Notes: generated from the letters alone by a model not told the origin. Counted from the stretch's first letter, positions 1,152-13,848 are shown. The stretch is 64,000 nucleotides of DNA from Candidatus Doudnabacteria bacterium (GCA_003151625.1 PLYC01000007.1:2929-66928); one strand, 5' to 3'. Program-made: numbers and translations.

Positions 1152-1180
1152 ATAGTGGTACAAGTACCACTATATTTTTT
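1152..1180 (+). terminator. Rho-independent terminator
   Basis: Hairpin atagtggtac-aa-gtaccactat followed by attttttatt. Confidence 0.6.
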
Positions 1181-1182
1181 AT

Positions 1183-1328
1183 TCGCGACGTAGGCGAGAC
1201 AAAGTAATGCCTTAAGGTATTACTTTGCGAGCCGAGGAGCTAAGAAAGGTTTAATACCTCGAGGCTTGCCGCGAATTTACAGAGAGGTCTTGCAGTAATA
1301 CCCCGTTGCTTACGGCGGGGGAACCTTT
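1183..1328 (+). promoter_or_regulatory. Conserved structured leader element, copy 1
   Basis: Layout: GCGACGTAGGCGAGA, then a hairpin, then CGAGCCGAGGAGC ... AGGTTTAATACCTC ... GCAGTAATACC ... GAACCTTTATG. It ends exactly at the start codon of 1329..2351. Same architecture as 5046-5200 (minus strand) and 12992-13257. Confidence 0.55.
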
Positions 1329-2351
1329 ATGTCCACAGAAACCAAAAATAAAATTTATCCACGAATTATTACGGGAATTATATTATTGGCCGTCGGGGTT
1401 ATTATAGGCAGATATATTCCCCAACAGTCGCCATCGCCCGATGTAAACCAAAAAAATTTATCTGCCGACGTCCGGGCTGGCGGGGGTAAATATACCAACC
1501 CTCTATTGGATTGTGACCAAAGCCAGGCAGTTTTTGTGGAATTGGCGCCCTTTAAAGATAAGGTCAACAGCCAAATAAGCGATTTAGAAAAAGACCAGGA
1601 TATTTCCAATATTTCAGTTTACTTCCGCGATATGAATAACGGCCCCTGGTTTGGTATTAGCAGTTCGGCGACTTTTTCCCCGGCAAGTCTGTTAAAGGTG
1701 CCTTTGGCCATAGCTTACTATAAGTTAAACGAGCAGTCGCCCGGAGTGCTTGCTCAAACTATAACCTACACGGGACCCGACAGCAGCTGGCCGAACATTA
1801 CCCAAACCATTCCGCCCAAAGAACTGCTTACCGTCGGACAAGCTTACTCAATGGATGATTTAATTAAGCGTATGCTGTCGTACTCCGACAACACCGCCTA
1901 CTACCTTTTATTTTCCAATATTAAACAAACGGATTTACAGTCGGTCTACAACGATTTTAACCTCCAGCTTAACGGTCCGGGTTCGGCGGACGACTCAACA
2001 GTAACTGTGCGTGGTTATTCCAGTTTTTTTAGGATTTTATTCAACGCCTCTTATTTAAATCGTTCAGATTCCGAAAAAGTATTGTCATATTTGGCTGACT
2101 CCGAATTTATGGATGGCTTGGCTGCCGGTGTTCCTAGTAATGTACCAATAGCCCATAAATTCGGCGAACGGGAAACAACCGACAAAAAGCCCGTGGAATT
2201 TCATGATTGCGGCATAGTTTATTATCCGCAGCATCCTTATTTACTTTGCGTTATGACGCAGGGCAGTGACATTGTCAAACAAACGAATGCCATCAAGCAA
2301 ATTTCTTCCACGGTCTATAATCAGGTAAACAGCCAAAACCCGGGGAATTAA
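1329..2351 (+). CDS. Class A beta-lactamase-like serine hydrolase (PBP/beta-lactamase fold), N-terminal membrane anchor
   Basis: Motifs in class-A order: FSPASLLK (SxxK), YSDNTAYY (SDN), HKFGE (KTG-like). N-terminal TM helix. Confidence 0.6.
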   Translation: MSTETKNKIYPRIITGIILLAVGVIIGRYIPQQSPSPDVNQKNLSADVRAGGGKYTNPLLDCDQSQAVFVELAPFKDKVNSQISDLEKDQDISNISVYFRDMNNGPWFGISSSATFSPASLLKVPLAIAYYKLNEQSPGVLAQTITYTGPDSSWPNITQTIPPKELLTVGQAYSMDDLIKRMLSYSDNTAYYLLFSNIKQTDLQSVYNDFNLQLNGPGSADDSTVTVRGYSSFFRILFNASYLNRSDSEKVLSYLADSEFMDGLAAGVPSNVPIAHKFGERETTDKKPVEFHDCGIVYYPQHPYLLCVMTQGSDIVKQTNAIKQISSTVYNQVNSQNPGN

Positions 2352-2457
2352 AATATGACTTAAGTCTAAGAAGTTTTAATAATATAAAAGATAGTCCGAG
2401 GGAACAAGATTTAACTACTTCGGAAAATAAATCGGAGCAGTCAATAATTTGCCCATT

Positions 2458-2636
2458 TTGCTTAAAAAAAGGGAAAAGCTTTTAATTTGGGCTTTAGTGG
2501 TCTTGGGTGTAACGGCAATTATTTTGGCAGTGTGGGGGAACTTATGAGTTTCGGGCAAGCTCTAGCGCGCGTTCGGAGCTTACAAAACTTCAACAAAATA
2601 ACGCCGCTTCAAGTGGCAACAATGCCTAGCAAATAA
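2458..2636 (+). other. Two candidate micro-ORFs: a 29-aa TM peptide with TTG start, and a 30-aa peptide whose start overlaps the first stop as ATGA
   Basis: Hydrophobic 29-aa ORF LLKKREKLLIWALVVLGVTAIILAVWGNL. ATGA overlap with MSFGQALARVRSLQNFNKITPLQVATMPSK. No clear RBS. Confidence 0.15.
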
Positions 2637-2659
2637 TTAATGAGGTTGGAAATCTAATT

Positions 2660-2872
2660 GTGTTGCCGCAAGACGAACAGCCGACAATTGCCACGGTAAC
2701 CGATTTAGCCAAGCTTCAGGGTCAGCCGTTTTTTGCCAACGCCCAAGTGGGAGACAAGGTTTTAATTTACAGCCGGGCAGGCAAAGTTATTTTATACCGG
2801 CCGGGCGAAAATAAAATAATTGAATTGGCGCCAATAAATATTTCCACTACCACCCCGCAAACAAGCCCGTAA
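2660..2872 (+). CDS. Hypothetical small protein (GTG start)
   Basis: 70-aa ORF with AT-rich host-like codon usage. No recognisable domain. Confidence 0.35.
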   Translation: MLPQDEQPTIATVTDLAKLQGQPFFANAQVGDKVLIYSRAGKVILYRPGENKIIELAPINISTTTPQTSP

Positions 2873-2964
2873 GCAAGGGGGGTAAAATAAGTCTTATATT
2901 GCCAACATGTCCTAGTCTTTTATGACCAAAATGTTTTATAAGACTCATTTTGTCCTATTTTAAT

Positions 2965-3140
2965 CCTTATAGGGTCTGTTGCCGAATGTCATTTTTGCCC
3001 AAAATTTGCTTTTTGGGCAAACCGGCCAAAAAAATTTCTCCGCTTACCTTTCAGGTAAACATCAAAATTTGTTTTTACCGCTTTGCCTCAAACATCAAAT
3101 TTTGCATCAAAAAGCCCATTCGGCAACAGACCCTTATACT
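2965..3140. repeat. MITE-like palindromic element with 17-bp perfect terminal inverted repeats
   Basis: gggtctgttgccgaatg at 2972-2988 and cattcggcaacagaccc at 3117-3133. Internal hairpins tttgcccaaaatttgctttttgggcaaa and ttacctttcaggtaa. The predicted 64-aa ORF 2950..3144 spans exactly this palindrome and is judged non-coding. Confidence 0.5.
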
Positions 3141-3375
3141 CTGACTTAACCATAACAAATTTTTCAACCGCTACTTCCTTCTGGCTATGTCGGTAATTTT
3201 GCTTATGGTTGCCATAGGTGGCTACTATATATAGAGTGGCAGTACCCGCCAAACCCGCCCCGTAAACACCCCGCTCCTTAAATCTCGCGACGGCGTAAAA
3301 TTACACTAATCCCAGATGGGCACCATCAAGGGGGACTATGAATAATTTTGAAATATTTATTGAACGATTGAATGA

Positions 3376-3415
3376 ATAATCGCCATCGGGCAGTATCCGC
3401 CCGATGGCGATTATT
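3376..3415. terminator. Bidirectional hairpin terminator between convergent genes
   Basis: aataatcgccatcggg cagtatccg cccgatggcgattatt, a perfect 16-bp stem flanked by A/T runs on both sides. Confidence 0.6.
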
Positions 3416-3425
3416 AAATTTTGAA

Positions 3426-4118
3426 CTATTTAGTCACTACCAGGGCGATTTTTCTGGTAGAGTCTATGCTTTTGGTTGCGTTATTCCAATCCGACGCAGC
3501 GTTTTGCAGCACCGAGAAAGGGTATTCGTTTCCGTCTCCGCCGTCTGTACCGGGGTCGTTGACTATAAATGTATCGCCTTTAAAACCGCGCAGGACTATC
3601 ATATGGTAAAGCGGGCCGCCGTTAACGTATTGAGTGTTGCCTAAAAGCTTGGCGTTTATGGGTAAAAGAATCGGATGGTTATTAATCAGCGCGATTTTTA
3701 AATCGTTTTCCGTAAAATTTGGAATTTGGGTAATATTTAGGCCAAACGCACCTTCGGCCATTTTGGTGGTGGCATCGGCGCCGGTATTTTGGTTATAGCC
3801 TAAATTGGCCTGTTCCCATTTTTTTAAATTGTCTATGGCATTTTGCGCCGCGGTTGCCGGCAGCCGGTCTTCTGTCGTGCCGGTTAAAAACGCGTTGGCC
3901 ATGGTAATGCTGGTTTCTTCGCAGTCTTCGTTGCGGCTCCAGTTATCGGTTGGCGCCTGCGCGCTAAAAGGCACGGCCAGCACAAAATTTATAGGAATGG
4001 TTTTTGGCGCAACCATTTTAAAAATAAACAAAGCCGCCACTGCCAGTAAAACAAAAACAATTCCGGCGTAAAGCATATCCAGTTTTGGGAATTTTATTTG
4101 CATTAAATTGAATCTCAA
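3426..4118 (-). CDS. Secreted C39-like (YvpB / Peptidase_C39_2-type) papain-fold cysteine peptidase, signal-anchored
   Basis: N-terminal TM. Motif QAPTDNWSRNEDCEETSITMANAFL (N.DCE.TS..MA catalytic Cys region) and downstream YHMIVLRGF His region. Paralog of 4188..4997. Confidence 0.5.
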   Translation of the reverse strand: MRFNLMQIKFPKLDMLYAGIVFVLLAVAALFIFKMVAPKTIPINFVLAVPFSAQAPTDNWSRNEDCEETSITMANAFLTGTTEDRLPATAAQNAIDNLKKWEQANLGYNQNTGADATTKMAEGAFGLNITQIPNFTENDLKIALINNHPILLPINAKLLGNTQYVNGGPLYHMIVLRGFKGDTFIVNDPGTDGGDGNEYPFSVLQNAASDWNNATKSIDSTRKIALVVTK

Positions 4119-4187
4119 AAAATTTTGTTAATTTTACTTTCCGCCAAAGGCGGATCCGCCTCCGGCGGAAATTTTGGTCAATAACTA

Positions 4188-4997
4188 TTATTTCCAAACC
4201 ACAATCATGACTTTTTTTGTTTGGTCAATTGTATTGGTATTGTGATCCCAGTCCGCTCCCGCGTTGTGGAGAGTTTCAAAAGTGTATGGGTAATTTTGGC
4301 CGCGCCTGGTGCCGGAATCGTTTGTAACAAGGCCGTTTGCCGTGTATCCGCGAACAACCAGCATATGATAAATCGGCCCGGGTTGCGTGTAGTTGGGATT
4401 GCCTATAATTTGACCGTTAACCGGCAAAATAACCACGTGGTTCTGGTTAAGTTGGTTTTTTATATCCTGCAAAGTATAGTCTGTAAAAACTTTTGTTTGC
4501 AAACCGTAAAATCCCTGAATCATTTGGGCTGTTTCGGCAGCCGTGGTATCTAAGTGGTATCCAAGGTGGCTGTCTTCCCAGTTATTCAAATTATTCATTT
4601 CGGTTTCGACTTGCGAAGCCGCGAGTACCACATTTGTATTACCGGTTAAATACGTATTAGCCATAAGCGCAGAGGCCTCTTCGCAGTCTTCGTTGTGGGC
4701 AAGATCCCAATTGGCGGTAGGGGCTTGGGAGGTAAAGGGGATTGGTAAGTTTAAGACACTTGGCTCTGCCGGAGTCGAGGTCGCGATTAGTGCTTGATTT
4801 TGGGAAGACAGCCTGCCGTTTCCGGTTGTGGTGGCTGACATCCCCAATTGGTCGTTATAATTTAAAACGATCGGTGTTTTACTGTTAATATAATAAAAAG
4901 CAGCCGCGACGAAAATTATTGCGGCAATAAAGAAAAAAAACATAACTCTCGAAGATTTTTTGTGGGGGGTAATTTTTGATATTTTAAAATCGTCCAT
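4188..4997 (-). CDS. Secreted C39-like cysteine peptidase, paralog of 3426..4118
   Basis: QAPTANWDLAHNEDCEEASALMANTYL and YHMLVVRGY, conserved with the neighbouring gene. N-terminal TM with lysine-rich start. Confidence 0.5.
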   Translation of the reverse strand: MDDFKISKITPHKKSSRVMFFFFIAAIIFVAAAFYYINSKTPIVLNYNDQLGMSATTTGNGRLSSQNQALIATSTPAEPSVLNLPIPFTSQAPTANWDLAHNEDCEEASALMANTYLTGNTNVVLAASQVETEMNNLNNWEDSHLGYHLDTTAAETAQMIQGFYGLQTKVFTDYTLQDIKNQLNQNHVVILPVNGQIIGNPNYTQPGPIYHMLVVRGYTANGLVTNDSGTRRGQNYPYTFETLHNAGADWDHNTNTIDQTKKVMIVVWK

Positions 4998-5045
4998 AAT
5001 TATGTGTTTAAGGACTTACCTATTAACTGTCCAGACGATAAAGAA

Positions 5046-5200
5046 ATAAAGGTTCGCTCTCTACAAAACCACGAGGTATTACTGCGCGAGTTATAGACTG
5101 CTATCGCAGTCGCCCGTTGGCTGGATGAGGTATCGAACCTGTATTGGCTCCTCGGCTCGCAAAGTAATCCTTAAGCTTACTTTGTCTCGCTCTACGTCGC
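5046..5200 (-). promoter_or_regulatory. Conserved structured leader element, copy 2 (minus strand)
   Basis: Minus-strand reading: GCGACGTAGAGCGAGA, then hairpin caaagtaagcttaaggattactttg, then CGAGCCGAGGAGC ... CAGGTTCGATACCTC ... GCAGTAATACCTCG ... GAGCGAACCTTTATT. It sits approx 45 nt upstream of the peptidase start at 4997. Confidence 0.55.
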
Positions 5201-5230
5201 TAATAAAAAGCCCTTGCTCTAGCAAGGGCT
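5201..5230 (-). terminator. Rho-independent terminator for the 5237..5344 minus-strand small ORF
   Basis: Hairpin agcccttgctagagcaagggct followed by TTTTTATT on the minus strand. Confidence 0.5.
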
Positions 5231-5236
5231 AACTAT

Positions 5237-5344
5237 TTATTTAACAACCGGAGGAGTCGCTGGCTTTTGGCCTGCGGGTGTAGGTTCGGCAGAAGTAGTA
5301 GGGGCTGTTGGTGTGGTTGTCGGAGGCTTTGTATCGTCGCTCAT
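5237..5344 (-). CDS. 35-aa Pro/Thr-rich small peptide (MSDDTKPPTTTPTAPTTSAEPTPAGQKPATPPVVK)
   Basis: Strong RBS agaaaggaaaa 7 nt upstream of ATG and its own terminator at 5201-5230. Below the 60-aa ORF-track cutoff. Confidence 0.4.
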   Translation of the reverse strand: MSDDTKPPTTTPTAPTTSAEPTPAGQKPATPPVVK

Positions 5345-5744
5345 AAATTTTCCTTTCTCTGCCATACCGTTGCTCTTTGGCCAAGCAGGTTTAAATTATT
5401 GTTGAGGTCTGTAGAGTATTTTTTTACATTGTCAGTAAAAAAATTTTGGGTCTCCAGGACCTCTTAAGTCATCGTAGTCTAAGGCGCAGATTCTGTATAC
5501 AGTAAAAAGTACGTATTACAACATTTAAGCCCGAGTTAAGCCTTAAGAAATGTTTATGGGTACGCTTAAGCAGTTAAATAGTTATTTAATTATTAATTTA
5601 TGTTCTAAATCCGGTTAAACGTTCATAACAAGTGTATAACTAATTTGACAGCTATATACATTTACTAGAATGGGGAGTAGGCTTAAGGTCTAGGGTTTAA
5701 TAATTAGATTACTAACTAACCATTTAACTAATTGTTGGACTTAC

Positions 5745-5797
5745 GCATTTTTGTTTTTTTAATTTAATGTTTTTAAAATAAAAAGGCGTAAGTCCTA
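5745..5797. repeat. Mini-copy of the GGACTTACGC-TIR MITE family
   Basis: ggacttacgc...gcgtaagtcc inverted termini flanking 33 nt of A/T. Sits immediately upstream of the arsR-like gene. Confidence 0.5.
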
Positions 5798-5820
5798 TGA
5801 TTGATTAAACAAGGAATGCC

Positions 5821-6126
5821 ATGCTTACCGATAAACAAATAACAAAAATTCGCAAGGCGTTTAACGGTACCGATCAAAGAGTAATTTTTAAAATACTCGG
5901 CGATACCAACCGTTACCGCATTTTTGAAATGTTGGGAAAACATTCCCGGCTTTCCGTAGGCGATATGGCAAAAATTTTAAGAATTTCCATACCCTTAGCC
6001 TCACAACATCTTAAAATTTTAGAGCAAGGCAATATGCTGGAAAAGGAGAAGCAGGGCCAGAAAGTTTATTACAAGCTTAGAACCGATAACACGATTGCCC
6101 ACGCGATTACCAAAGGCGTCCTCTAA
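5821..6126 (+). CDS. ArsR/SmtB-family HTH transcriptional regulator
   Basis: HTH SVGDMAKILRISIPLASQHLKILEQGNML and wing GQKVYYKL. RBS aaggaa. Confidence 0.7.
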   Translation: MLTDKQITKIRKAFNGTDQRVIFKILGDTNRYRIFEMLGKHSRLSVGDMAKILRISIPLASQHLKILEQGNMLEKEKQGQKVYYKLRTDNTIAHAITKGVL

Positions 6127-6138
6127 CCACTACTAAAT

Positions 6139-6372
6139 ATGCCAAAAGAAAATGTTATTATTCTTGCCAGAGAATTATTTAAAATCAGGCTTAGTTCTTC
6201 CCGGGAAGGCGTTGCCGAAGATGACGGCGTGCATGAAATGAAAATCAAAGGCATTAGCTCTTACAACGACGTGGTAATAGAAAAGTGGTATAAGGAGGCC
6301 ATAAGAACAGCTGAAATTATAATCGCTTTGGAAGAAGAATATTTGAAAACAGATAATTTTCCACATAATTAA
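6139..6372 (+). CDS. Hypothetical protein, co-oriented 12 nt after the arsR-like gene
   Basis: 77-aa ORF, tightly spaced operon-like arrangement. Confidence 0.4.
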   Translation: MPKENVIILARELFKIRLSSSREGVAEDDGVHEMKIKGISSYNDVVIEKWYKEAIRTAEIIIALEEEYLKTDNFPHN

Positions 6373-6386
6373 TTTTTAAAAAATAT

Positions 6387-6887
6387 ATGTCGTTTTCAAA
6401 CGGAATGAACGAAAAAAAAGAAAAGTCTGAAGGTAGAAATCAGGTTTATTTGTATACCGCCGCCGGTGTGATAGTTCTGGCGCTCGCCATTTGGGGAGTC
6501 TATGCTTATAACCATTCGGGCAGTCAGACCGGCACTCAACAGGTCTCGCTCCAGGACAACTTAAATAACACTCCGGCCGCAACCACAACCCCGACCTCCA
6601 CCCCCGCAAGCATTCCCGAGAAGCTTTCTTATGGTGCCGCTATACAAGCCTACCCAGAACGTTTTCAGTTTAAGCTATGCCAGGGAACCCCAGCCACGAT
6701 TGCCGTAAAGAAAGGCACGCCAGTTATGCTGGATAATAGAGATACAACAGCACATACCTTTAAGGCCGATACCCAAACTTTTAGAATTGCTGGTTTAGAT
6801 TACGCTGTGCTTTATCCGCAAGTTCTAGGTAACCTTGTGGTCACCTGCGACAGCAAAGACCGGGTGACGTTAAATGTTGAAAAATAA
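6387..6887 (+). CDS. Hypothetical exported protein with N-terminal TM and Thr/Pro linker
   Basis: TM helix, TTPTSTPAS linker, then a beta-rich C-terminal domain. Confidence 0.45.
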   Translation: MSFSNGMNEKKEKSEGRNQVYLYTAAGVIVLALAIWGVYAYNHSGSQTGTQQVSLQDNLNNTPAATTTPTSTPASIPEKLSYGAAIQAYPERFQFKLCQGTPATIAVKKGTPVMLDNRDTTAHTFKADTQTFRIAGLDYAVLYPQVLGNLVVTCDSKDRVTLNVEK

Positions 6888-6892
6888 ATTAA

Positions 6893-7060
6893 ACAAATTC
6901 GAAATACGAATACCTGCCTCGACTTGACTGCCGAGTCAAGGCGGGTCGAAATTCGAAACAAATTCGAAATTTAAAATTTTAATATTTAAAACAGGTTTTG
7001 AATTTACTCATTTAGAATTTAAATATTGTTTCGTATTTCGGATTTAGTGCTTCGGATTTA
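6893..7060. repeat. Large imperfect palindromic AT-rich region built from 'attcgaaat / atttcgaat' units
   Basis: aaattcgaaatacgaata ... cgaaattcgaaacaaattcgaaattt mirrored by gtttcgtatttcggattt...cttcggattt. Includes hairpin gcctcgacttgactgccgagtcaaggcgg. Related regions at 48150-48290 and 62633-62775. Confidence 0.45.
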
Positions 7061-7076
7061 TTTTGAAAGGAACTTT

Positions 7077-7433
7077 ATGGATTCATATAACTCACCCAGT
7101 ACCAAACCGCTTTACCGCGGTACGCAAATTGTTTGGTATATTGTCGGCCTTTTGGAAGCGCTCTTGGCGTTTCGGTTTGTGCTTAAACTGCTCGGTGCCA
7201 ATCCCGCCGCCGGATTTACCAGCTTCATTTACGGCATTACCTATCCTTTTGCCGCTCCGTTCTTAAGTGTGTTTAAGATAAGCGATGTTAACGGCAGTAT
7301 TTTTGAATGGACTACCTTGCTGGCCATGTTGGTTTACTGGCTGATTGCCATGGCTATTGTTAAATTGTTTTTAATGGGCAAAACCGTTTCCACTCCGGAA
7401 GCCGCGGTCAAGTTAGACAACCAGGATAAATAA
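7077..7433 (+). CDS. YggT-family membrane protein
   Basis: LLAFRFVLKLLGANPAAGFTSFIYGITYPFAAPF matches the YGGT signature. RBS gaaagga. The 7026 start in the ORF track overlaps the palindrome and is judged spurious. Confidence 0.6.
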   Translation: MDSYNSPSTKPLYRGTQIVWYIVGLLEALLAFRFVLKLLGANPAAGFTSFIYGITYPFAAPFLSVFKISDVNGSIFEWTTLLAMLVYWLIAMAIVKLFLMGKTVSTPEAAVKLDNQDK

Positions 7434-7445
7434 TAGTTTAATCTT

Positions 7446-7628
7446 GTGGTTATCAAAAAAACTAGGCGGATAATTATCATACTGATAGTCACACTGTCAT
7501 TTGTAAATGTGTTTATTAGCACATCTTTGCATGATAAGTCGACAAACGTAGCCATTTCTACGGGCGTGTTAGTTGCCACTATCGTGCTTGCTGTATTACT
7601 TATTTTGACTGAAGCACGGAAAGAATAG
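7446..7628 (+). CDS. Possible 60-aa two-TM membrane peptide (GTG start)
   Basis: Two hydrophobic helices. No clear RBS. Confidence 0.25.
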   Translation: MVIKKTRRIIIILIVTLSFVNVFISTSLHDKSTNVAISTGVLVATIVLAVLLILTEARKE

Positions 7629-7667
7629 AGATAGAAAAATAATATTACAATGGAAAGGAAAAAGTTT

Positions 7668-8036
7668 ATGACAAAAACATCTAACGCCGGAAAAGTTGCC
7701 GGAGCTGTAGGACTGGCAGCCGGAATTGCGGCAGCGGCAGCGTATTATTTTTACGGAAAAGAAGGTAAAGGCCACAGAAAGGAAGCCGAGACTTGGACAA
7801 AAAAGGCCAAAGCGGAAGTTTTGGAAAAAATTAAAGAAATGAAAAATATCAGCCAAACGGCTTATGAAAAGGTCATAGCGGAGGTTTTGGCGAAATACAA
7901 ACTGGTTAAGAATATTGATCCTAAAGAATTGCAAAGTTTTGGGCAAGAGTTAAAAGCTCATTGGACAGAAATTTCCAAACAAGCGGCCAAGCTTAGCGGA
8001 AAAGGCGTCTCAAAAAAACCTGCGACGAAAATATGA
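7668..8036 (+). CDS. YtxH-like membrane-anchored protein (N-terminal GxxxG/Ala-rich helix plus coiled coil)
   Basis: KVAGAVGLAAGIAAAAAYYFYGKEGKGHRKE pattern. RBS ggaaagg. Paralog of 10221..10604 in inverted orientation. Confidence 0.5.
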   Translation: MTKTSNAGKVAGAVGLAAGIAAAAAYYFYGKEGKGHRKEAETWTKKAKAEVLEKIKEMKNISQTAYEKVIAEVLAKYKLVKNIDPKELQSFGQELKAHWTEISKQAAKLSGKGVSKKPATKI

Positions 8037-8305
8037 TTATTTTACTTGTTTTAGTTTTTGGCGCGATTGTCGGAATTATTGCCTTTGCGGTTAAGGGTTC
8101 CGGTTATGGGTTGTGGTGGGACATAATGCTGGGGATTGTCGGGTCTATTATTGCGAGTTTCGTTATGACAGCCGCTTACATTTTAAACCGTTTTGGCAGG
8201 GCAGATGTTATAGGGTTTAATTGGTACAGTATGGTTATTGGGACAATTGGCGCTCTTACGGTAATTTACGGCGCTTGGCTTTATAATAGAGCAAATTTAA
8301 TATAA
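8033..8305 (+). CDS. GlsB/YeaQ/YmgE-family transglycosylase-associated small membrane protein
   Basis: ATGA overlap with the upstream gene. GIVGSIIASFVM ... GFNWYSMVIGTIGA pattern. Confidence 0.6.
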   Translation: MIILLVLVFGAIVGIIAFAVKGSGYGLWWDIMLGIVGSIIASFVMTAAYILNRFGRADVIGFNWYSMVIGTIGALTVIYGAWLYNRANLI

Positions 8306-8306
8306 A

Positions 8307-8396
8307 TAGGACTTACGCACTTGGTCAAGCCCTTGTGGTTTGAGGCAACAATATATAGAGTTTCTATCATTTTTGCCTCAAACGCGTAAGTCCTAA
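8307..8396. repeat. Internally deleted copy of the GGACTTACGCG-TIR MITE
   Basis: taggacttacgc ... gtttgaggcaa...ttgcctcaaacgcgtaagtccta. Retains the 3' hairpin module of the full copies. Confidence 0.6.
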
Positions 8397-8450
8397 TAAA
8401 AATAATTTTTAAACGGTTTAATTATACGATTAAACCTAAAAAGGAGATAT

Positions 8451-8615
8451 ATGGCGACAGATGAAGATGTACAAAATGCCGATGACGATGCGTCAGACGC
8501 TCAAACTAGCGCTGATGTCGCTAAAGATGATGCCAAGCAGGTGCGTAGTGATGTGATAGACGAACATCATCAAATATCCGATGATGAAGAAAATAAAGCC
8601 GAGGCTTTGGAGTAG
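8451..8615 (+). CDS. 54-aa highly acidic small protein (MATDEDVQNADDDASDAQTSADVAKDDAKQV...)
   Basis: Strong SD aaaaaggagatat upstream of ATG. Below the ORF-track size cutoff. Confidence 0.5.
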   Translation: MATDEDVQNADDDASDAQTSADVAKDDAKQVRSDVIDEHHQISDDEENKAEALE

Positions 8616-8661
8616 AAAGGTCGCAATTTTTGAAATTATTAATAACTAAACAACATTTTAT

Positions 8662-8913
8662 ATGGGAATTATACTTTGGATAATATTTGGCGCTTTGGCC
8701 GGGTGGATTGCCTCGGCAATTATGGGGAGCAGGGACGGTGTGTTAATGGATATAGTAATTGGAATAGTTGGCGCGGTTTTGGGCGGCTGGATTATGAGCC
8801 TCTTTGGCCAGGGCGGCGTATCGGGCTTTAATCTTTATAGCTTCCTGGTGGCAATACTAGGAGCAGTCGTTCTAATTTGGATTGTAAGAGCTATAAGGGG
8901 TTCTAAAGTTTAA
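8662..8913 (+). CDS. GlsB/YeaQ/YmgE-family small membrane protein
   Basis: MGIILWIIFGALAGWIASAIMGSRDG...DIVIGIVGAVLGGWIM classic signature. Confidence 0.7.
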   Translation: MGIILWIIFGALAGWIASAIMGSRDGVLMDIVIGIVGAVLGGWIMSLFGQGGVSGFNLYSFLVAILGAVVLIWIVRAIRGSKV

Positions 8914-9090
8914 AACATAATAGTAAGTCCTACATAGGCTAATATACAGGCTTTTTGACAAGGCTTTTTGACGGTTTGACTTTGTGCTTAATACCTGTCA
9001 TACTTATAAAGCAAAAAATATTTATAGAAAAGTCGTCGAATTTCACAAATATATTTTAAATTTGCAACTTTATTTTTAAACTCTAAATCC

Positions 9091-9288
9091 ATGAATGGTG
9101 TAATTAAGAAAAAGATTGACAAAGGCTTTGGTTTTATTACCGTTGCCGGTCAAGACAAAGACTTATTTTTTCACAGCAAGTCTTTGGTTGGCGTCACTTT
9201 TGACGAAATCCAAGAAGGTGATAACGTCTCTTTTGATGTAGAAGATTCTCCAAAAGGACCGAACGCTGTTAACGTACAACGCGTTTAA
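9091..9288 (+). CDS. cspA: Cold-shock protein (CspA family)
   Basis: GVIKKKIDKGFGFITVAGQDKDLFFH...GDNVSFDVE: RNP1/RNP2 motifs of the cold-shock domain. Confidence 0.85.
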   Translation: MNGVIKKKIDKGFGFITVAGQDKDLFFHSKSLVGVTFDEIQEGDNVSFDVEDSPKGPNAVNVQRV

Positions 9289-9300
9289 TTTGTCTTTAAA

Positions 9301-9337
9301 AAAGCCCCTCCGATTATCGGAGGGGCTTTTTGTTTTA
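9301..9337 (+). terminator. Rho-independent terminator
   Basis: aaagcccctccgattatcggaggggcttttt gtttt. Confidence 0.7.
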
Positions 9338-9369
9338 TTGGCTGGTAGTGTCAAAGGTGACCTTTGACA

Positions 9370-10032
9370 CTATTTAAGCAAGCTTTTTAAGTTGGCAATT
9401 TTACCGTCCGTAATATCCCATTCGTAAATGTCTGCGTTGGCAATATCTTTGTCCGTGTCCAGTCCTCTATAAATTCTGGGAATGTCGGGGAAGTGGAAAA
9501 GCAATAATCGGATAACACCATTGTGGGTAATAATGCCCACATTTTGTTTGTCGTGGTTGGAAATAATATCTAAAATCGCGCTTATGGATCTTTGCCTGAC
9601 ATCCTCCACGCTTTCCCCGCCAAAAGGGCGGTAGTCATAGCTTTGCATGGCTTCGCGTTCGCGGTTATCGGGCAAGAGCCTGTCCCATTCCTCATGGTTT
9701 TTGCCGCTCAAACTCCCAAAGTCGCGCTCGCGTAATCGAAAATCGTGAAAGACCGGTATGGGTTCCTTCAAACTTTTGTTTATTAGCGCGGCTGTTTCCT
9801 CGGCCCTAAGCAGGTAAGAAGTAAACAATACATCTAAATCTAAAACTTCAACAAATTTTGCGATTTTTTGGATCTGCAAAACTCCCTGAGTGTCCAGGTA
9901 GTCGTTAATTTGTACACCTTGCCTAATTTTTTGTTTATTACTTATGGTCTCTCCATGGCGAATAAAGTAGAGAGTGGTGGAGCTTCTAATTTTCATTGAG
10001 GGTAGTTTAGAGTCTCGGAATTTAGAACTCAT
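9370..10032 (-). CDS. Histidine phosphatase family protein (phosphoglycerate-mutase-like)
   Basis: YFIRHGET catalytic RHG motif with branch-1 histidine phosphatase architecture. Hairpin tagtgtcaaaggtgacctttgacacta abuts the stop. Confidence 0.65.
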   Translation of the reverse strand: MSSKFRDSKLPSMKIRSSTTLYFIRHGETISNKQKIRQGVQINDYLDTQGVLQIQKIAKFVEVLDLDVLFTSYLLRAEETAALINKSLKEPIPVFHDFRLRERDFGSLSGKNHEEWDRLLPDNREREAMQSYDYRPFGGESVEDVRQRSISAILDIISNHDKQNVGIITHNGVIRLLLFHFPDIPRIYRGLDTDKDIANADIYEWDITDGKIANLKSLLK

Positions 10033-10049
10033 TTTAAAAATAATTTGTA

Positions 10050-10146
10050 GACGAAATTTCAGGATTTTGAGCGGATTGGCTCTTAATAAATTTTGACGTT
10101 TAGCCAGAGCTAAGCGGAAAAATTTTTAAGGCCAAGACGCCAAAAT
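10050..10146 (+). repeat. About 90-nt intergenic repeat, copy A (possible small RNA)
   Basis: ggattttgagcggattggctcttaataaattttgacgtttagccagagctaagcggaaaaatttttaaggccaagacgccaaaat is approx 90% identical to 19628-19733 in the same orientation. Contains ttagc-caga-gctaa hairpin. Confidence 0.55.
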
Positions 10147-10188
10147 GCTGGAATTGCAGCCCGAAGGATTTTTAAAATGGGTTCTTAG

Positions 10189-10209
10189 TAGGACTTATGT
10201 GTAAGTCCT
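10189..10209. repeat. Solo fused TIR pair of the MITE family (taggacttatgtgtaagtccta)
   Basis: 21-nt perfect palindrome made of the two MITE termini with no internal sequence. Confidence 0.45.
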
Positions 10210-10220
10210 ACTTGCTTTTT

Positions 10221-10604
10221 TTAGCTCTTACGGGGCTTTTTTTTGATAGCTGGTTTTTTAGCCACCAGGTTGGTAGCTTCATTGACTATTTTTTCCCAGT
10301 GGCTTTTGAGTTCAAGGCCAAAAGCCTGCAGCTCTTTGGGGTCAATATTTTTGGCTTGTTTGTACTTGGCCAAAACTTCCTCGGCCGCCTGGTTGTAAGC
10401 TTGTTTGCTAACGGACTTCATTTTTTTTACTTTTTCCAGCAAGTCGGATTTCGCTTTTTTGCTCCAGCCGGACAATTCTTTTAGATGTTTTTTACCTTTT
10501 TTACCGGAAAAATAATATCCGGCCGCGGCCGCGGCCGCTCCGGCGGCCAAAGCCGCCATACCCAAACTTCCTGCTACTTTAGCCGCAGTTGTTTTCTTTT
10601 GCAT
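10221..10604 (-). CDS. YtxH-like membrane-anchored protein, paralog of 7668..8036
   Basis: MQKKTTAAKVAGSLGMAALAAGAAAAAAGYYFSGKKGKKHLKE. RBS gaaagga. Shared C-terminal motifs EVLAKYK.KNIDPKELQ.FG.ELK.HW. Confidence 0.5.
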   Translation of the reverse strand: MQKKTTAAKVAGSLGMAALAAGAAAAAAGYYFSGKKGKKHLKELSGWSKKAKSDLLEKVKKMKSVSKQAYNQAAEEVLAKYKQAKNIDPKELQAFGLELKSHWEKIVNEATNLVAKKPAIKKKPRKS

Positions 10605-10694
10605 AAATAGTCCTTTCAATTTTCTACTAAATACTAAATTTGGTGATTGCCACGTTTAGTATTTTTAGTCACTTTAGTATTTAGTAGAGGGTTG

Positions 10695-10985
10695 TTATTT
10701 TTTTTCTTTGCCGCTCTGGGCGGATTTCCTCAAGTTATTAAAGAAACTGGCAAAATATTTTAAGTTCGTTCCTTTTTCCCTGACGTTTTCCCTAAGATCG
10801 GACAAATCTTTGGCAATAAAATCTGCCTCATTTTTTGCTTTTCCGGAAATGTACTTTATGTCACTGGAAATTTTTATAATATAAATTGCCAGCACGGCCA
10901 AAAGCGCGGTTAAAACCACAACAGCAATGCTGGTAATAAGAAAAAAAATGTCCATTTTGGCGAATTCGGTCATAGTATTGATCAA
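10695..10985 (-). CDS. DUF948-like membrane protein (N-terminal TM plus coiled coil)
   Basis: TM helix IFFLITSIAVVVLTALLAVLAIYII followed by a charged helical region. Confidence 0.4.
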   Translation of the reverse strand: MINTMTEFAKMDIFFLITSIAVVVLTALLAVLAIYIIKISSDIKYISGKAKNEADFIAKDLSDLRENVREKGTNLKYFASFFNNLRKSAQSGKEKK

Positions 10986-11078
10986 AAGATATTTGTTGAT
11001 ATTTAGGGATATTAGTAGATATTATTTTGTCACCCAATATCTATTAATATCTCAATTTCAATTAATATCTTTTTTGAA

Positions 11079-11570
11079 CTATTTATAATATTCCCTAATC
11101 TGAAACAGGAAGTACATGGAAATTACAACATTAAAAATCAAATTAATAAAACTTCCATCAATCAACTGGCCAACCGCGCTTACTAAAACCGCGTAATAAA
11201 CCAAATGCCAGCTTTTAAGGCTTCGTTTAAAAAGTCCCGGCAAAGCCACGGCTTCCATAATAAAAGCAATTAGGCCAATTAAGGCTCCAAGCAAATAAGT
11301 TATCTGGTTGCCATAACCGCCATACATTTTAGCCACCGGGCTAAAAACCGCGCTAAGTCCAATGGCCGCCAACATTGCTAGAGCGCCAAAAATCATTAAG
11401 ACTAAGGTTATCCAGGGCCCGAATTTTACAATCCATTCTTTAGCGACTGGGGGCAGATGGAAGGGGACTTTTTTGTGGAGATAGGTATCAAAAAAGTCTT
11501 CCATTTGCTTTAAAAAACCATGGGGTTGCGGGGCGACTATAGGGTTTTGATTTGGTTGTTGTGTGTCCAT
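11079..11570 (-). CDS. Hypothetical polytopic membrane protein
   Basis: 163 aa with four predicted TM segments. No recognisable motif. Confidence 0.45.
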   Translation of the reverse strand: MDTQQPNQNPIVAPQPHGFLKQMEDFFDTYLHKKVPFHLPPVAKEWIVKFGPWITLVLMIFGALAMLAAIGLSAVFSPVAKMYGGYGNQITYLLGALIGLIAFIMEAVALPGLFKRSLKSWHLVYYAVLVSAVGQLIDGSFINLIFNVVISMYFLFQIREYYK

Positions 11571-11625
11571 ATATTTGTTTGAGTATTAGCGATATTTACA
11601 AATATCAGCCAATATCTTAATTACT

Positions 11626-11799
11626 TAGGACTTACGCGCTTGGCCGAGTATGAGGCATTTTGTGAGGATTTTTGGAGGCGTAGTTTGACTACGTCGGCAA
11701 AAACCGCAGCAAAATAACGAAGTAATCGGCCAAGCCCCTGCGGTTTGAGGCAACAAGATATAATTTTTGTTCATTTTTGCCTCAAACGCGTAAGTCCTA
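11626..11799. repeat. Full-length (approx 175 nt) MITE with TIR TAGGACTTACGCG
   Basis: Termini taggacttacgcg / cgcgtaagtccta. Internal hairpins cttggccga/tcggccaag, cgtagtttgactacg, gtttgaggcaa/ttgcctcaaac. Near-identical inverted copy at 20600-20774. Confidence 0.7.
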
Positions 11800-11834
11800 T
11801 GTCTGTTAATTTAATTTCTAATATTTATATTATA

Positions 11835-12404
11835 TCACGTTTTTCCATACTTACTAAATAATTCCTCCAAAATGTTCTGGTAGCTTTGGCGGATATTTTG
11901 GTCGCGTCCGACCTCCAAAACTTCATCGTTAATGTTGGTAGCCGCCGTTGTCCAGTTGTAAGACCCGCTGGCGTAAGCTTTTTCCGTAACCAGAGCCTTC
12001 ATGTGCATAATGCCCGAGTGATCCTGCTCATAGACAGGTATGCCGTCGTCGCGCAGAGCGTCTATTATTTGTTTTTGCCCGGGAGCTTGGTTGTATTGGT
12101 CGCGATCGGTAATGCCCACTACGGTCAGGCCGCGGTACTTGGCCGCAATTAAAGCCTGTTCTATATCCTGCCTGGTAAAAGTGTAAACCGCGAAGTAAAC
12201 AAATTTATCCGCGTCCCGGATTTGATTAATAATTTCATCGTTCAACGCGTGATCCTGATTGTAGTAAACGCTGATTTCATGCGTTGGCAAGTAGCGGTAA
12301 GAATAGTAAAATTGTCCACAAAGCGCGATGAGTGAAATAATAACAATCAAATAAACTATGTCTTTTTTGTTTTTCATATTTGTGTCAGGAAATTGTGAAA
12401 TCAA
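11835..12404 (-). CDS. Phospholipase D-family (Nuc-like) protein with N-terminal TM
   Basis: HMKALVTEKAYASGSYNWTTAA = HxK(x4)D/E(x6)GS.N PLD/Nuc signature. Confidence 0.5.
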   Translation of the reverse strand: MISQFPDTNMKNKKDIVYLIVIISLIALCGQFYYSYRYLPTHEISVYYNQDHALNDEIINQIRDADKFVYFAVYTFTRQDIEQALIAAKYRGLTVVGITDRDQYNQAPGQKQIIDALRDDGIPVYEQDHSGIMHMKALVTEKAYASGSYNWTTAATNINDEVLEVGRDQNIRQSYQNILEELFSKYGKT

Positions 12405-12439
12405 GAAATTAGGAAATTGGGGAGCGTGTCCCCAATACC

Positions 12440-12874
12440 TTAATATCCCAATTTCTTAATTTCCTTTTTAATTTCTCTTTTTTGTATATACTCTCGTTTA
12501 TCTGCCTTTTTTCTCGCTTTGCCTAAGCCTATCCTCATTTTTATCAATCCGCGATTACCCAAAAAAATATCCAGGGGAATTACTACCAACCCTTTTTCTT
12601 TTCCGAGCAATTTGTTTATTTCCGATTTGTTTAAAAGAAGTTGTCGGGTTTGGGTCGGCTGGTATTTTTCATCGGGCGCGTACTTGTAAGGCCCAATATG
12701 GCAATTAATTAAACTGGCCCCCCTGGCCGACACGGTTACATAAGCCCCGGCCAAAGAAACATTGCCGCCTTTAACGGATTTTACTTCTGCCCCGCTCAAT
12801 ACCAAACCGGCAGTAAAGTTTTCTTTAATATCGTAATCAAACCTTGCTCTCTTATTGTCCGCAAAAATTTTCAT
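12440..12874 (-). CDS. smpB: SsrA-binding protein SmpB
   Basis: NKRARFDYDIKENFTAGLVLSGAEVKS...GNVSLAGAY, with a Lys/Arg-rich C-tail typical of SmpB. Confidence 0.9.
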   Translation of the reverse strand: MKIFADNKRARFDYDIKENFTAGLVLSGAEVKSVKGGNVSLAGAYVTVSARGASLINCHIGPYKYAPDEKYQPTQTRQLLLNKSEINKLLGKEKGLVVIPLDIFLGNRGLIKMRIGLGKARKKADKREYIQKREIKKEIKKLGY

Positions 12875-12950
12875 ATCCGGTGTTTAATCTAATATATATT
12901 GTACCACCATTTATACTCTTGTCTATAAGCAAATTTTGACTTAAAATATA

Positions 12951-12988
12951 AGTGGAGAAAATTCTCGGCCGAGAAAATCATCCACTTA
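12951..12988. repeat. Palindromic hairpin of the AAGTGGA..TTC.CGGCCG.GAA..TCCACTT family
   Basis: aagtggagaaaattctcggccgagaaaatcatccactt. A near-identical hairpin at 13811-13848 brackets the leader element plus paaX-like gene. Confidence 0.5.
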
Positions 12989-12991
12989 TTA

Positions 12992-13257
12992 GCGACGTAG
13001 AGCGAGAGAAATGATATGCAGCATATCATTTCCGAGCCGACCTATTCAACTCCGCTCAAGGCCCCGAGTGCAGATCGAGGGGGAGCTTCCGCCAAAGGCG
13101 GATCCTCCTCCCTTCGAGGGTCTGAGGACCCCTCAGGGTCTCGAACGACCGGCGGAAATACAGGTTCAATACTTCGTCCCGCCGACGGCGGAACTGCGAA
13201 GTGCAGGCAGTTCATTGCACTAATACCTCGCAGCTCTGCGGATAGCGAACCTTTATT
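12992..13257 (+). promoter_or_regulatory. Conserved structured leader element, copy 3, carrying a nested approx 110-nt GC-rich multi-hairpin insertion
   Basis: GCGACGTAGAGCGAGA, then hairpin gaaatgatatgcagcatatcatttc, then CGAGCCGACC ... AATACAGGTTCAATACTTCG ... GCACTAATACCTCG ... GCGAACCTTTATT. The first 86 codons of predicted ORF 13016..13795 are translation of this element. Confidence 0.5.
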
Positions 13258-13273
13258 AAATAAGCAACATTTT

Positions 13274-13795: not shown

Positions 13796-13810
13796 ATGAA
13801 TAGATAGAAA

Positions 13811-13848
13811 AGTGGATAAATTTCACGGCCGTGAAATTTACCCACTTC
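13811..13848. terminator. Palindromic hairpin (same family as 12951 and 37763) acting as terminator
   Basis: agtggataaatttcacggccgtgaaatttacccact. Confidence 0.5.

Follow-up and report, generated by a model that had tools for sequence, protein, structure and literature searches.

Three copies of a small structured repeat in Candidatus Doudnabacteria, probable members of a non-autonomous mobile family of Patescibacteria

Elements at the locus

The window (the whole 64 kb stretch of DNA that was analysed) carries three copies of a structured non-coding element, oriented +, -, + inside 13 kb. Copy 1 runs into a gene of the beta-lactamase family, and its end TTTAT provides the AT of the start codon (ATG 1329). 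Copy 2 has a resident terminator hairpin on one side and a C39-peptidase gene (ATG 4997) on the other, and copy 3 is flanked by the divergent smpB and PaaX-like gene (ATG 13274).

All three copies had been claimed in a preliminary description and all are present, with the shared blocks in the order given there. Copies 2 and 3 match block 1 exactly, and copy 1 is short of one base (GCGACGTAG-GCGAGA). Blocks 2-5 were found in order in every copy, block 5 being GGGGGAACCTTTAT in copy 1 and ATAGCGAACCTTTAT in copy 3. The limits first proposed (1183-1328, 5046-5200 and 12992-13257) were slightly too narrow, because the six bases 5' of GCGACG (TTATTC/TTATTA) form part of the closing stem, and they were revised to 1179-1330, 5206-5045 and 12986-13258. 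A covariance model with 81 homologues as input detected no further element in the 64 kb window. The three copies scored 44.6-74.6 bits and the best other match only 10 bits, thus the copies are far beyond chance. The features are as follows.

1149-1176, +: terminator-like hairpin of the gene upstream of copy 1; its T-tail runs into copy 1; flank, not element
1179-1330, +: copy 1, whole element, 152 nt; 74.6 bits, E 1.4e-21; MFE fold z = -4.75
1179-1186, +: copy 1, closing stem P1, 5' strand TTATTCGC; partner GCTAAGAA at 1239-1246, one C.T mismatch
1185-1199, +: copy 1, 5' core strand GCGACGTAG-GCGAGA; the consensus bulged A is deleted
1200-1227, +: copy 1, variable stem P2, CAAAGTAATGCC / GGTATTACTTTG
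1228-1240, +: copy 1, 3' core strand CGAGCCGAGGAGC
1247-1330, +: copy 1, hairpin 2 (P3), outer stem AGGTTT/GAACCT, 3' tail TTTAT
5045-5206, -: copy 2, whole element, 162 nt; 71.4 bits, E 1.5e-20
5185-5200, -: copy 2, 5' core strand GCGACGTAGAGCGAGA
5160-5184, -: copy 2, variable stem P2, CAAAGTAA / TTACTTTG
5147-5159, -: copy 2, 3' core strand CGAGCCGAGGAGC
5045-5140, -: copy 2, hairpin 2 (AGGTTCG ... CGAACC) and 3' tail TTTATT
5209-5230, -: terminator-like hairpin of the small gene upstream of copy 2; flank
12986-13258, +: copy 3, whole element, 273 nt; 44.6 bits, E 8.4e-12; MFE fold z = -4.87
12992-13007, +: copy 3, 5' core strand
13008-13032, +: copy 3, variable stem P2, GAAATGATAT/ATATCATTTC
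13033-13040, +: copy 3, start of the 3' core strand, CGAGCCGA
13041-13157, +: copy 3, expansion segments in the 3' core/P1 strand
13162-13258, +: copy 3, hairpin 2 (AGGTTC ... GAACCT) and 3' tail TTTATTA

Hairpin 2 of copy 1 contains two inner hairpins with AATAC before each. Copy 3 has about 115 additional bases after CGAGCCGA (13041-13157). They include a broken form of a 32-nt palindrome (TTCCGCC..GGCGGAA), and this palindrome is likewise inserted here at the loci L085 and L104. The tail TTTATTA of copy 3 is an exact repeat of its 5' TTATTA.

Folded structure of the element

The unit consists of two adjoining hairpins folded from one strand, and eight independent MFE folds agree on this arrangement (z = -3.7 to -6.5). 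In hairpin 1, a covarying closing stem of 8 bp (P1, TTAYNNGC/GCN'N'R.., with TTAYNN+GC as 5' strand) is followed by an invariant purine-rich rod and then by a covarying 12-bp stem (P2). In the modelled fold the rod reads GC, G.A/A.G, C-G, a bulged-G GUA/GA module, G-C, a bulged A, GC/CG, G.A/A.G and G-C, and would thus hold two tandem G.A pairs and one bulged-G module. Hairpin 2 is a variable stem-loop with the closing pairs AUAGG../..CCUAU. The 3' tail (T/A)TAY(NN) repeats the 5' TTAY(NN), and the internal strand GC-N'N'R-WAWAGG could pair with either the 5' motif or the tail. Expansion segments are hairpin-shaped and stand at fixed points of the element; the minimal unit is 76 nt, and the family ranges from about 75 to 270 nt.

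The hairpin sequence had been described as different in every copy. This is right for copy 3, but copies 1 and 2 have a near-identical stem (CAAAGTAA/TTACTTTG), so that the three copies amount to one independent stem comparison. The compensatory changes themselves are real and were borne out across the 81 homologues. P2 showed double-sided changes in 12/12 pairs with 94.9% of helix cells paired, and the covariation score was matched by 0/500 shuffles. For P1 and P2 together, 90.2% of cells were paired versus 76.3% in shuffles, 240 cells were changed on both sides versus 52, and the covariation score was 0.374 versus at most 0.10 with the partners slid. G.T exceeded A.C in both stems (55:22 in P2, 20:10 in P1), therefore one strand is the folded one.

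The core strands of 16 nt and 13 nt are conserved across CPR classes. Their invariance is partly due to the search pattern. Four off-pattern copies depart from it at 1-3 core positions and keep the remainder.

At the 5' end, conservation is 92% for T at -6, 91% for T at -5, 98% for A at -4 and 100% for Y at -3, and nothing farther 5' is conserved among the homologues. Terminal inverted repeats were not found, the end-anchored identity being 7.4/25 versus 6.5 in shuffles (maximum 13). There is an AT-rich terminal direct repeat of 3-8 nt. Its mean of 4.8 nt is barely above the 4.2 nt obtained with ends of unrelated elements, so a true target duplication is not established; nested copies would fit a duplication of TATA or TA.

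Gene neighbourhood

The preliminary description placed the start of each copy right after a terminator hairpin and its end 0-40 nt before a start codon. The former is correct for all three copies (1149-1176, 5230-5209 and 12950-12987) and the latter roughly so, with ATG 1329 overlapped, 47 nt to ATG 4997 and 15 nt to ATG 13274. Neither is general among homologues. A strong upstream hairpin occurs in 20% of 92 homologues versus 13.5% of controls. For the 59 homologues with ORFs on both sides, the neighbour orientation was ++ in 23, -- in 18 (antisense to both neighbours), convergent in 13 and divergent in 5, with more convergent than divergent spacers and no bias in orientation; a co-oriented gene lies upstream of 36/59 copies. 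No recurrent neighbour gene was found, the largest cluster (8/91 loci) being a generic ABC ATPase, and no sigma-70-like promoter match facing the downstream gene was found inside any window copy.

These data bear on the reading as a cis-regulatory 5' leader (riboswitch or attenuator), of which a riboswitch-like element had been suggested earlier. In such a leader the internal strand would switch between the 5' flank and the 3' tail. Each of the three window copies is followed within 0-47 nt by a co-oriented gene, one strand with two alternative partners is riboswitch-like, and hairpin 2 of copy 1 holds the start codon of the beta-lactamase-family gene and a G-rich Shine-Dalgarno-like run. However, 31/59 homologues have no co-oriented gene downstream, and about 10 elements extend at their 3' end into the stop codon of a convergent gene. 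The neighbouring genes do not form a coherent set, the same genes in relatives have no element upstream, and tandem and nested copies exist. The leader reading is largely refuted, and we regard it as very improbable.

Distribution and evidence for mobility

An exact 22-base pattern scan of species genomes listed more than 115 loci, with about 95 true elements among the matches listed. Homologues among these matches belonged nearly all to Patescibacteria: Saccharibacteria and MAGs of Yonath-, Kaiser-, Taylor-, Nomura-, Azam-, Vogel-, Komeili-, Magasanik-, Buchanan-, Doudna- and Shapirobacteria. Several elements per genome were often found. Rfam 15 gave no family on the elements, even at E<=10 with single elements, and at threshold its only hits in the window were two tRNAs. 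No plasmid, phage or literature match was found for the element. Of the alternative named in the preliminary description, a fragment of a known IS or MITE end with no association to gene starts, one half was found: the association is absent elsewhere, but no known IS or MITE end was identified.

The preliminary description had also mentioned a mobile module, and this option fits. The element is in none of 13 ArgRS-anchored loci (133 kb; 12 at 70-81% ArgRS identity), most of which are syntenic with the window. At locus L122 the orthologous site of copy 2 is empty and the hairpin corresponding to 5209-5230 is conserved, which assigns this hairpin to the flank, and the smpB-paaX spacer is 106 nt in L123 versus 400 nt in the window. 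No syntenic copy common to two species was seen among the loci compared. A missing element in relatives could in principle be a loss.

Pairs in the same genome at unrelated loci have 97% (L039/L046), 90% (L049/L105) and 93% (L017/L058) identity, which begins at -7 to -10 and ends at ..TTTATT. Copies of different lineages have 88-94% identity, also with sharp ends. In both L031 and L103 the same TATA of the host element holds a nested member of a variant family in opposite orientation, and tandem units share one common junction motif (L081, L010, L086). Neither a circle junction nor an excision was seen. Transposase, integrase and reverse transcriptase were absent from the 64 kb window, and a search of the window and of about 1 Mb of loci gave no Y1/HUH (including RAYT) match.

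Possible explanations

On the sequence evidence, the best reading is that the element behaves as a mobile insert rather than a gene-control leader. The copies are probably members of a large family of small, non-coding, non-autonomous mobile repeats of Patescibacteria (CPR), which fold as a single strand. Because one internal strand could pair with either end, a head-to-tail junction or circle would become one continuous duplex (rod). The unit may be copied or excised while folded as single-stranded DNA or RNA, and an enzyme acting in trans from a gene elsewhere would join it at short AT-rich TTAY/TATA sites, selected at least partly by internal-strand pairing. The window copies would then be lineage-specific insertions in AT-rich spacers, two of them in terminator T-tails. 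Their position upstream of genes would be chance and any effect on those genes incidental. In copy 1 the start region of the beta-lactamase-family gene is buried in hairpin 2. Conservation of the core across classes is unusual for a purely selfish repeat and counts against the mobile reading; it points to a role at the RNA level or in protein binding, which could be of benefit to the host.

An alternative is a host-serving structured RNA module duplicated around the genome, as a protein-binding small RNA, an RNP scaffold or a 3'-UTR/processing/stability element. Its rod would bind a conserved CPR protein, and its patchiness would be gain and loss. The very strong core conservation over CPR classes, the consistently predicted RNA-like non-Watson-Crick modules, the excess of G.U over A.C, the fixed positions of expansion hairpins and boundaries as sharp as in tRNA-type genes agree with it, as do the 36/59 copies downstream of a co-oriented gene. 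But a shared promoter is missing, because conservation begins only 6-10 nt upstream, 18/59 copies are antisense to both neighbours, and among the loci compared no copy is found at matching syntenic sites of two species. A copying mechanism is needed anyway for the nested insertions and for the identical copies at unrelated loci, and we consider this explanation unlikely.

The pairing of both termini with one internal strand also allows a putative catalytic or self-processing RNA, in the form of a small ribozyme, self-cleaving/ligating or intron-like. Here the internal strand would act as a splint for the 5' flank and the 3' end, like IGS/EBS in group I/II introns, with excision and reinsertion independent of protein. 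The loop-E-like module and tandem G.A pairs, which are also in viroid and hairpin-ribozyme cores, the invariant core and the head-to-tail tandem units (L081) are in line with this. Against it, no Rfam ribozyme or intron model scores at E<=10 with single elements, the minimal unit has just 76 nt and two hairpins, and the orientation is independent of host transcription; a ribozyme is therefore improbable. A further reading, itself unlikely, is a new kind of mini-replicon that bears its own guide and exists as a rod-shaped circle of single-stranded RNA or DNA, 76-270 nt in size. Its internal strand, pairing the TTAY(NN) target and its own 3' end, would direct integration, and its rod would be catalytic or a handle for a universal CPR enzyme. 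If true, it would be a gene-less mobile element that targets by base-pairing and spreads horizontally over a whole bacterial superphylum.

Comparison with known systems

Like a classical MITE, the element is short, non-coding, multi-copy and intergenic, with insertion polymorphism; the absence of terminal inverted repeats does not agree with one. Group II (class C) introns have six domains and at least about 400 nt and stand after terminators. The element has 75-270 nt, matches no intron model and is only weakly enriched for an upstream hairpin (20% vs 13.5%).

BOX of pneumococcus, Correia/NEMIS of Neisseria and ERIC are modular structured repeats, confined to species or genus and mostly with inverted-repeat ends and TA duplications. 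They resemble the element in their constant and variable modules, strong predicted RNA folds, intergenic position, incidental neighbour effects, and a mobilising enzyme that is borrowed or not established. The present family, in contrast, extends over a superphylum and lacks inverted ends. Integron attC is a recombination site defined less by sequence than by its single-strand fold, which includes a variable terminal hairpin, and is alike in having a core motif at both cassette ends complementary to an internal inverse core. However, the element has no RYYYAAC/GTTRRRY cores (its ends are TTAYNN and (T/A)TAY), occurs in mixed orientations and has no integrase in the window. It does not form arrays beside an integrase or carry ORF cassettes, and its conserved part is the "content", not the site.

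REP are imperfect palindromes of 20-40 nt with GTAG at the hairpin 5' foot (PMC3479197). REP/BIME (REPIN) are likewise intergenic, multi-copy, non-coding, imperfect hairpins with functionally important mismatches, in both orientations and commoner near gene 3' ends (PMC3479197). The GTAG tetranucleotide 5' of a hairpin is also shared, but here it is 7 nt 5' of P2, within the conserved rod and not at the foot, which does not fit a REP/REPIN palindrome. REP are usually inverted pairs of species- or genus-specific sequence tied to a single-copy RAYT (TnpA-REP nuclease) gene that the repeats flank, whereas the element has 75-270 nt, two different hairpins, a core common to CPR classes and no RAYT seen.

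The ends of IS200/IS605 and of the miniature derivatives of this family, the PATEs, which move as folded ssDNA, share with the element the lack of terminal inverted repeats, a strand-specific fold and a subterminal hairpin at each end (P2, P3); TTAY stands at -6..-3 in 91-100% of copies. IS608 has TTAC at its left end, 19 nt from the hairpin foot, and a right-end motif 10 nt 3' of the inner hairpin (PMC3201880). The TTAY of the element, outside or at the left end, is about 18 nt from the hairpin foot, and its inner hairpin is followed after 8-11 nt by the right-end motif. The IS200/IS605 ends are recognised through pairing with internal sequence and through non-canonical interactions (PMC3201880), and the ends of the element may be recognised likewise. 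Unlike the element, IS608 has as guide the 4 nt directly 5' of each hairpin, and its two hairpins are alike. In the element the four bases at this position of P2 read GAGA and have no complementarity to TTAY; the matching strand is found 3' of hairpin 1, where it lies between the hairpins and would serve both ends. The hairpins are dissimilar, P2 and P3 having unrelated sequences, and they vary with compensation. No catalogued RNA family was matched, and the best reading is that the element represents a new family of non-autonomous mobile elements.

Copies in the window

The preliminary description of three copies was borne out both by reading the sequence directly and by alignment, and the five blocks stand in identical order in all of them.

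1179-1330, forward strand: copy 1, with one base of block 1 absent; 74.6 bits
5206-5045, reverse strand: copy 2; 71.4 bits
12986-13258, forward strand: copy 3, with about 115 additional bases placed after CGAGCCGA; 44.6 bits

The scores are those of R1, a covariance model built from 81 homologues. With filters off, R1 found nothing else above 10 bits in the window, so there are exactly three copies, all in the first 13.3 kb. The 16-mer of block 1 has two exact matches in the 64 kb, with 0.31 expected when up to three mismatches are allowed. Neither block 3 nor block 5 is significant individually in the 64-kb window, and the significance therefore rests on the ordered combination.

Secondary structure and conserved core

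Hairpin 1 consists of a closing stem (P1), a purine-rich core (the rod) and a variable 12-bp stem (P2); hairpin 2 is P3. In A3, where 81 units were aligned by sequence alone with MAFFT, the bases that follow GGA (GC-N'N'R..) are the pairing partners of GC plus the six bases 5' of GCGACG. Double-sided changes were found in 11, 23 and 13 sequences at the three variable pairs of P1, and in 12 of the 12 pairs of P2. Overall, 90.2% of cells are paired, versus 76.3% in shuffles. The covariation score was 0.374, a value reached by 0 of 500 shuffles, and slid partners gave at most 0.101. G.T mismatches outnumber A.C mismatches in P2 (55:22) and in P1 (20:10), so the fold is selected on the given strand, as RNA or single-stranded DNA, and not as a symmetric duplex feature.

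Pairings in P1 (examples) and predicted pairings in the rod
P1: TTATTA-GC with GC-TAATA
P1: TTATAA-GC with GC-TTATA
P1: TTACGA-GC with GC-TCGAA
P1: TTATTG-GC with GC-CAA..
P1: TCACTG-GC with GT-CAG
P1: TGACGG-GC with GC-CCG
Rod, canonical pairs: G10-C79, C11-G78, C14-G75, G18-C72, G20-C71, C21-G70, G24-C67
Rod, tandem G.A: G12.A77 / A13.G76; G22.A69 / A23.G68
Rod, bulged-G module: bulged G15 with U16.A74 and A17.G73
Rod, bulged A: A19 (A, G or absent); A25

Both conserved strands of the rod can be fitted to an irregular helix between P1 and P2 in which every base is placed. When eight elements of different lineages were folded with ViennaRNA, its Watson-Crick pairs were predicted independently (z = -3.7 to -6.5). 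The non-canonical pairs are predicted from known motif rules, namely tandem sheared G.A in a C-GA-G context and the bulged-G/loop-E module; being invariant, they are beyond the reach of covariation. The invariance of the core is imposed in part by the search pattern, and copies found only with the model (L037, L008, L083, L047) each have 1-3 core positions off the pattern and keep the remaining core.

P3 starts 0-3 nt after P1. The simplest form has a YAAUA loop on a stem that is closed by AUAGG/CCUAU, and larger forms have one or two added GC-rich hairpins with AAUA before each. The window copies share a two-branch P3 with L008, L054 and L066; consensus folding of seven sequences supported only the outer stem of this two-branch 3' domain, a stem that shows no covariation. 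The 3' strand has two fixed points at which hairpin-shaped expansion segments are found (L088, L111, L085, L104 and window copy 3). At one and the same point of the closing stem, 3' of GGAGC, two Doudnabacteria MAGs (L085, L104) carry the perfect 32-nt palindrome TTCCGCCAGAGGCGGATCCGCCTCTGGCGGAA, and an interrupted version lies in window copy 3 at 13087-13157. The palindrome may be a separate tiny insert.

Occurrence in other genomes

A scan with the pattern GCGACGTAG(N0-1)GCGAGA-N15-45-GAGCCGA, in which each prokaryotic species was represented by one genome, gave more than 115 loci among the matches listed. About 19 of these listed matches were set aside as chance, lying within coding regions of GC-rich genomes with neither hairpin nor context, and about 95 are AT-rich intergenic elements. 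Hosts among the matches listed are Saccharibacteria and MAGs of Yonath-, Kaiser-, Taylor-, Nomura-, Azam-, Vogel-, Komeili-, Magasanik-, Buchanan- and Doudnabacteria, with a Shapirobacteria MAG on one short contig; many MAGs contributed 2-5 loci apiece to this list. Five loci (L015, L010, L039, L046, L111) belong to MAGs whose label is 'uncultured Gammaproteobacteria'. For the L015 MAG at least, this public label is probably wrong, since 600 nt of L015 match a Patescibacteria MAG contig (L099) at 100% identity.

Viral contigs gave no true match to three patterns (three chance matches were inspected), and blastn against plasmids and phages gave no match to the element. We place the element among structured intergenic repeats; it is absent from Rfam 15, where the window and single elements gave nothing on it at the gathering threshold or at E<=10, and from the literature as searched by literal sequence strings and by topic. 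Likeness to k-turn, C/D-box, retron, T-box, 5S and SRP was judged by eye and rejected, the defining motifs being absent. Since smpB adjoins copy 3, tRNA and tmRNA genes were searched for in the window; only two tRNAs were found, away from the element, and the smpB-argS spacers of relatives hold no tmRNA. The window SmpB had no exact-sequence match on record.

Genomic context

The preliminary description had read the copies as a functional RNA or a mobile promoter-leader module in front of genes, possibly riboswitch-like. The structure stands and mobility is probable, while the leader reading falls away. The flanking ORFs of 59 elements were ++ in 23, -- in 18, convergent in 13 and divergent in 5 cases. 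In about ten cases the 3' TTAT gives the stop codon of a convergent gene on the opposite strand (e.g. L034). In search of a partner gene, the 960 ORFs surrounding 91 loci were clustered all against all, and no neighbour family recurred beyond a generic ABC ATPase (8/91 loci). No sigma-70-like match facing the downstream gene was found inside any window copy. Insertion after terminators was considered as a general rule and dropped, the enrichment being weak.

Thirteen ArgRS-anchored metagenome loci were compared, 12 at 70-81% ArgRS identity and one distant (27%). The order HisPhos-..-PLD-SmpB-(PaaX)-ArgRS is mostly kept in seven of them (L120-L123, L125, L127, L129); in the others, either the sequence is too short for the order to be judged or ArgRS alone matches. 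The element was found in none of the 13 (133 kb in total, E<=1). In L122 the C39-peptidase ATG lies 17 nt past the terminator hairpin that precedes copy 2 in the window, and the spacer has TTTAT, so this is an empty site for copy 2. The smpB-paaX spacer is 106 nt in L123 versus 400 nt in the window. A leader function is the least credible of the readings considered, and we regard it as very unlikely.

Copies of the element also occur at unrelated loci of one genome: L039/L046 share 97% identity over 148 nt, and also past an internal indel, L017/L058 93% and L049/L105 90%. Whole-unit copies 88-94% identical are found between species and even classes, as in L035/L082 (Yonathbacteria) versus L040 (Shapirobacteria; the contig is short and possibly mis-binned), and further in L049, L097, L113 and L096. 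In two unrelated genomes (L031, L103), a variant family with the same architecture and a different G.A-rich core is nested in a host element, in opposite orientation and at the same TATA of the internal strand. Among the matches listed, no copy fills a syntenic position in two species.

Sister families of the same plan lie at L040:627-695, L102:6621-6687, L031:1529-1594 (-) and L103:4792-4864. They have an AT-rich closing stem from T(T/A)AT, then a purine-rich rod, two successive hairpins and a repeated end. It is in the core that they are different; one example, GAGCGAGCGA on both strands, could form repeated GC and tandem G.A blocks. These families point to a wider superfamily.

Ends and junctions

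At the left end, 92% of copies have T at -6, 91% have T at -5, 98% have A at -4 and 100% have Y at -3, and upstream of -7 there is no conservation among them. The identity of near-identical pairs breaks off at -5 to -10 at the left end; at the right end it stops directly past ..CCTATATT or ..CCTTTAT(T). The 5' motif recurs in the 3' tail (TTATTA ... TTTATTA in copy 3); the tail is TTTATT in copy 2, TTTAT in copy 1 and GGTTTAC in TTAC-type elements. No terminal inverted repeats are present in the element. The terminal repeat, at 4.8 nt, only slightly exceeds the 4.2 nt seen between unrelated elements; an exact target duplication is indistinguishable from shared consensus, and we do not claim one as proven.

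In copy 1 the terminal TTTAT-G overlaps the neighbour's start codon (1329-1331). There and in L034, L025, L029, L032, L033, L083 and L109, the terminal TTAT doubles as part of a neighbour's start or as an opposite-strand stop (..GAATAA), so insertions abut coding regions at zero spacing and leave the coding unbroken.

The 5' and 3' ends are both complementary to one internal strand, and their pairings with it therefore have 3-4 nt in common. Where units stand in tandem (L010, L086, and L081 with a unit of 76 nt), a single motif closes one unit at its 3' end and supplies the P1 strand of the unit that follows. From the shared strand and this junction motif we infer that circles or concatemers would be rod-shaped, with an unbroken single duplex at the centre, and would show the junction ..CCTWTAT-TAGCGACG...

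L022/L037 was rejected as a boundary-defining pair, since the element sits there within a larger repeat. The larger repeat measures about 260 nt and has two copies in a single MAG, at L022:4880-5140 and, on the reverse strand, in L037. It is bounded by terminal inverted repeats of its own, 17-18 bp long (CTTTGAATTACRAAACTC), and its inner inverted arms are long. It is a classical MITE-like unit that captured the element.

Other features of the window

A 38-nt palindromic hairpin at 12950-12987 (AAGTGGAGAAAATTCTCGGCCGAGAAAATCATCCACTT) recurs with compensatory differences at 13810-13847 (AAGTGGATAAATTTCACGGCCGTGAAATTTACCCACTT), and the two bracket copy 3 and the PaaX-like gene. Seven ArgRS-anchored loci (L120, L121, L122, L124, L125, L127, L129) lack this gene in the smpB-argS interval; it is present in L119, L123 and L126. 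Either the gene alone or all of the bracketed segment may have been inserted. About 1.1 kb of sequence (2352-3425), flanked by the beta-lactamase-family gene and the second C39 peptidase, holds no ORF above 70 aa and only far sub-threshold Rfam matches (EFASI 2519-2631, RAGATH-19 2984-3109). A very strong bidirectional terminator-like hairpin of 15 bp (AAAAAGCCCCTCCGATTATCGGAGGGGCTTTTT), with many weak Rfam leader/terminator matches, lies at 9299-9331, and a (CGGCCG)3 run at 10520-10537.

Interpretation and comparison with known systems

CPR bacteria (Patescibacteria), whose genomes are tiny and whose spacers are short, are considered poor in repeats. The 29-nt core is common to Saccharibacteria, many Parcubacteria lineages and Doudnabacteria, and represents either an unrecognised mobile element with unusual base-pairing end recognition or a conserved RNA-protein module. 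The covariance model could be used to annotate CPR genomes, and the element could mark horizontal exchange among their lineages. As a compact fold of about 80-110 nt of RNA or single-stranded DNA, it is open to direct in vitro testing. It also warns that a conserved structure upstream of genes in a single window should not be taken as a riboswitch.

On balance, we favour as probable a non-autonomous element that would be mobilised as a folded single strand at TTAY sites. The window genes are housekeeping only (aminoacyl-tRNA synthetases, H+-PPase, PEP carboxylase, RecO, UvrD and others), and tblastn with approximate Y1 transposase queries, a weak test, gave no match in the window and about 1 Mb of loci. 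An RNA module serving the host, which the strand bias of the mismatches would also allow, appears unlikely. It is less likely still that the element is something categorically new, a base-pairing-guided mini-circle or a ribozyme, and a self-processing RNA is very unlikely.

Two known systems offer a comparison. The features of REP/RAYT (PMC3479197) are matched only in part. In IS608, the target and cleavage tetranucleotide TTAC is external to the left end, at a distance of 19 nt from the foot of the hairpin, and the right site lies 10 nt 3' of the hairpin; the ends are recognised via pairing with internal DNA, with non-canonical interactions and a single-stranded DNA circle (PMC3201880). Our element departs from the guide rule and the hairpin-similarity rule of IS608, whereas its spacing is loosely alike, with TTAY 18 nt from P2 and the 3' motif 8-11 nt after the P3 inner hairpin.
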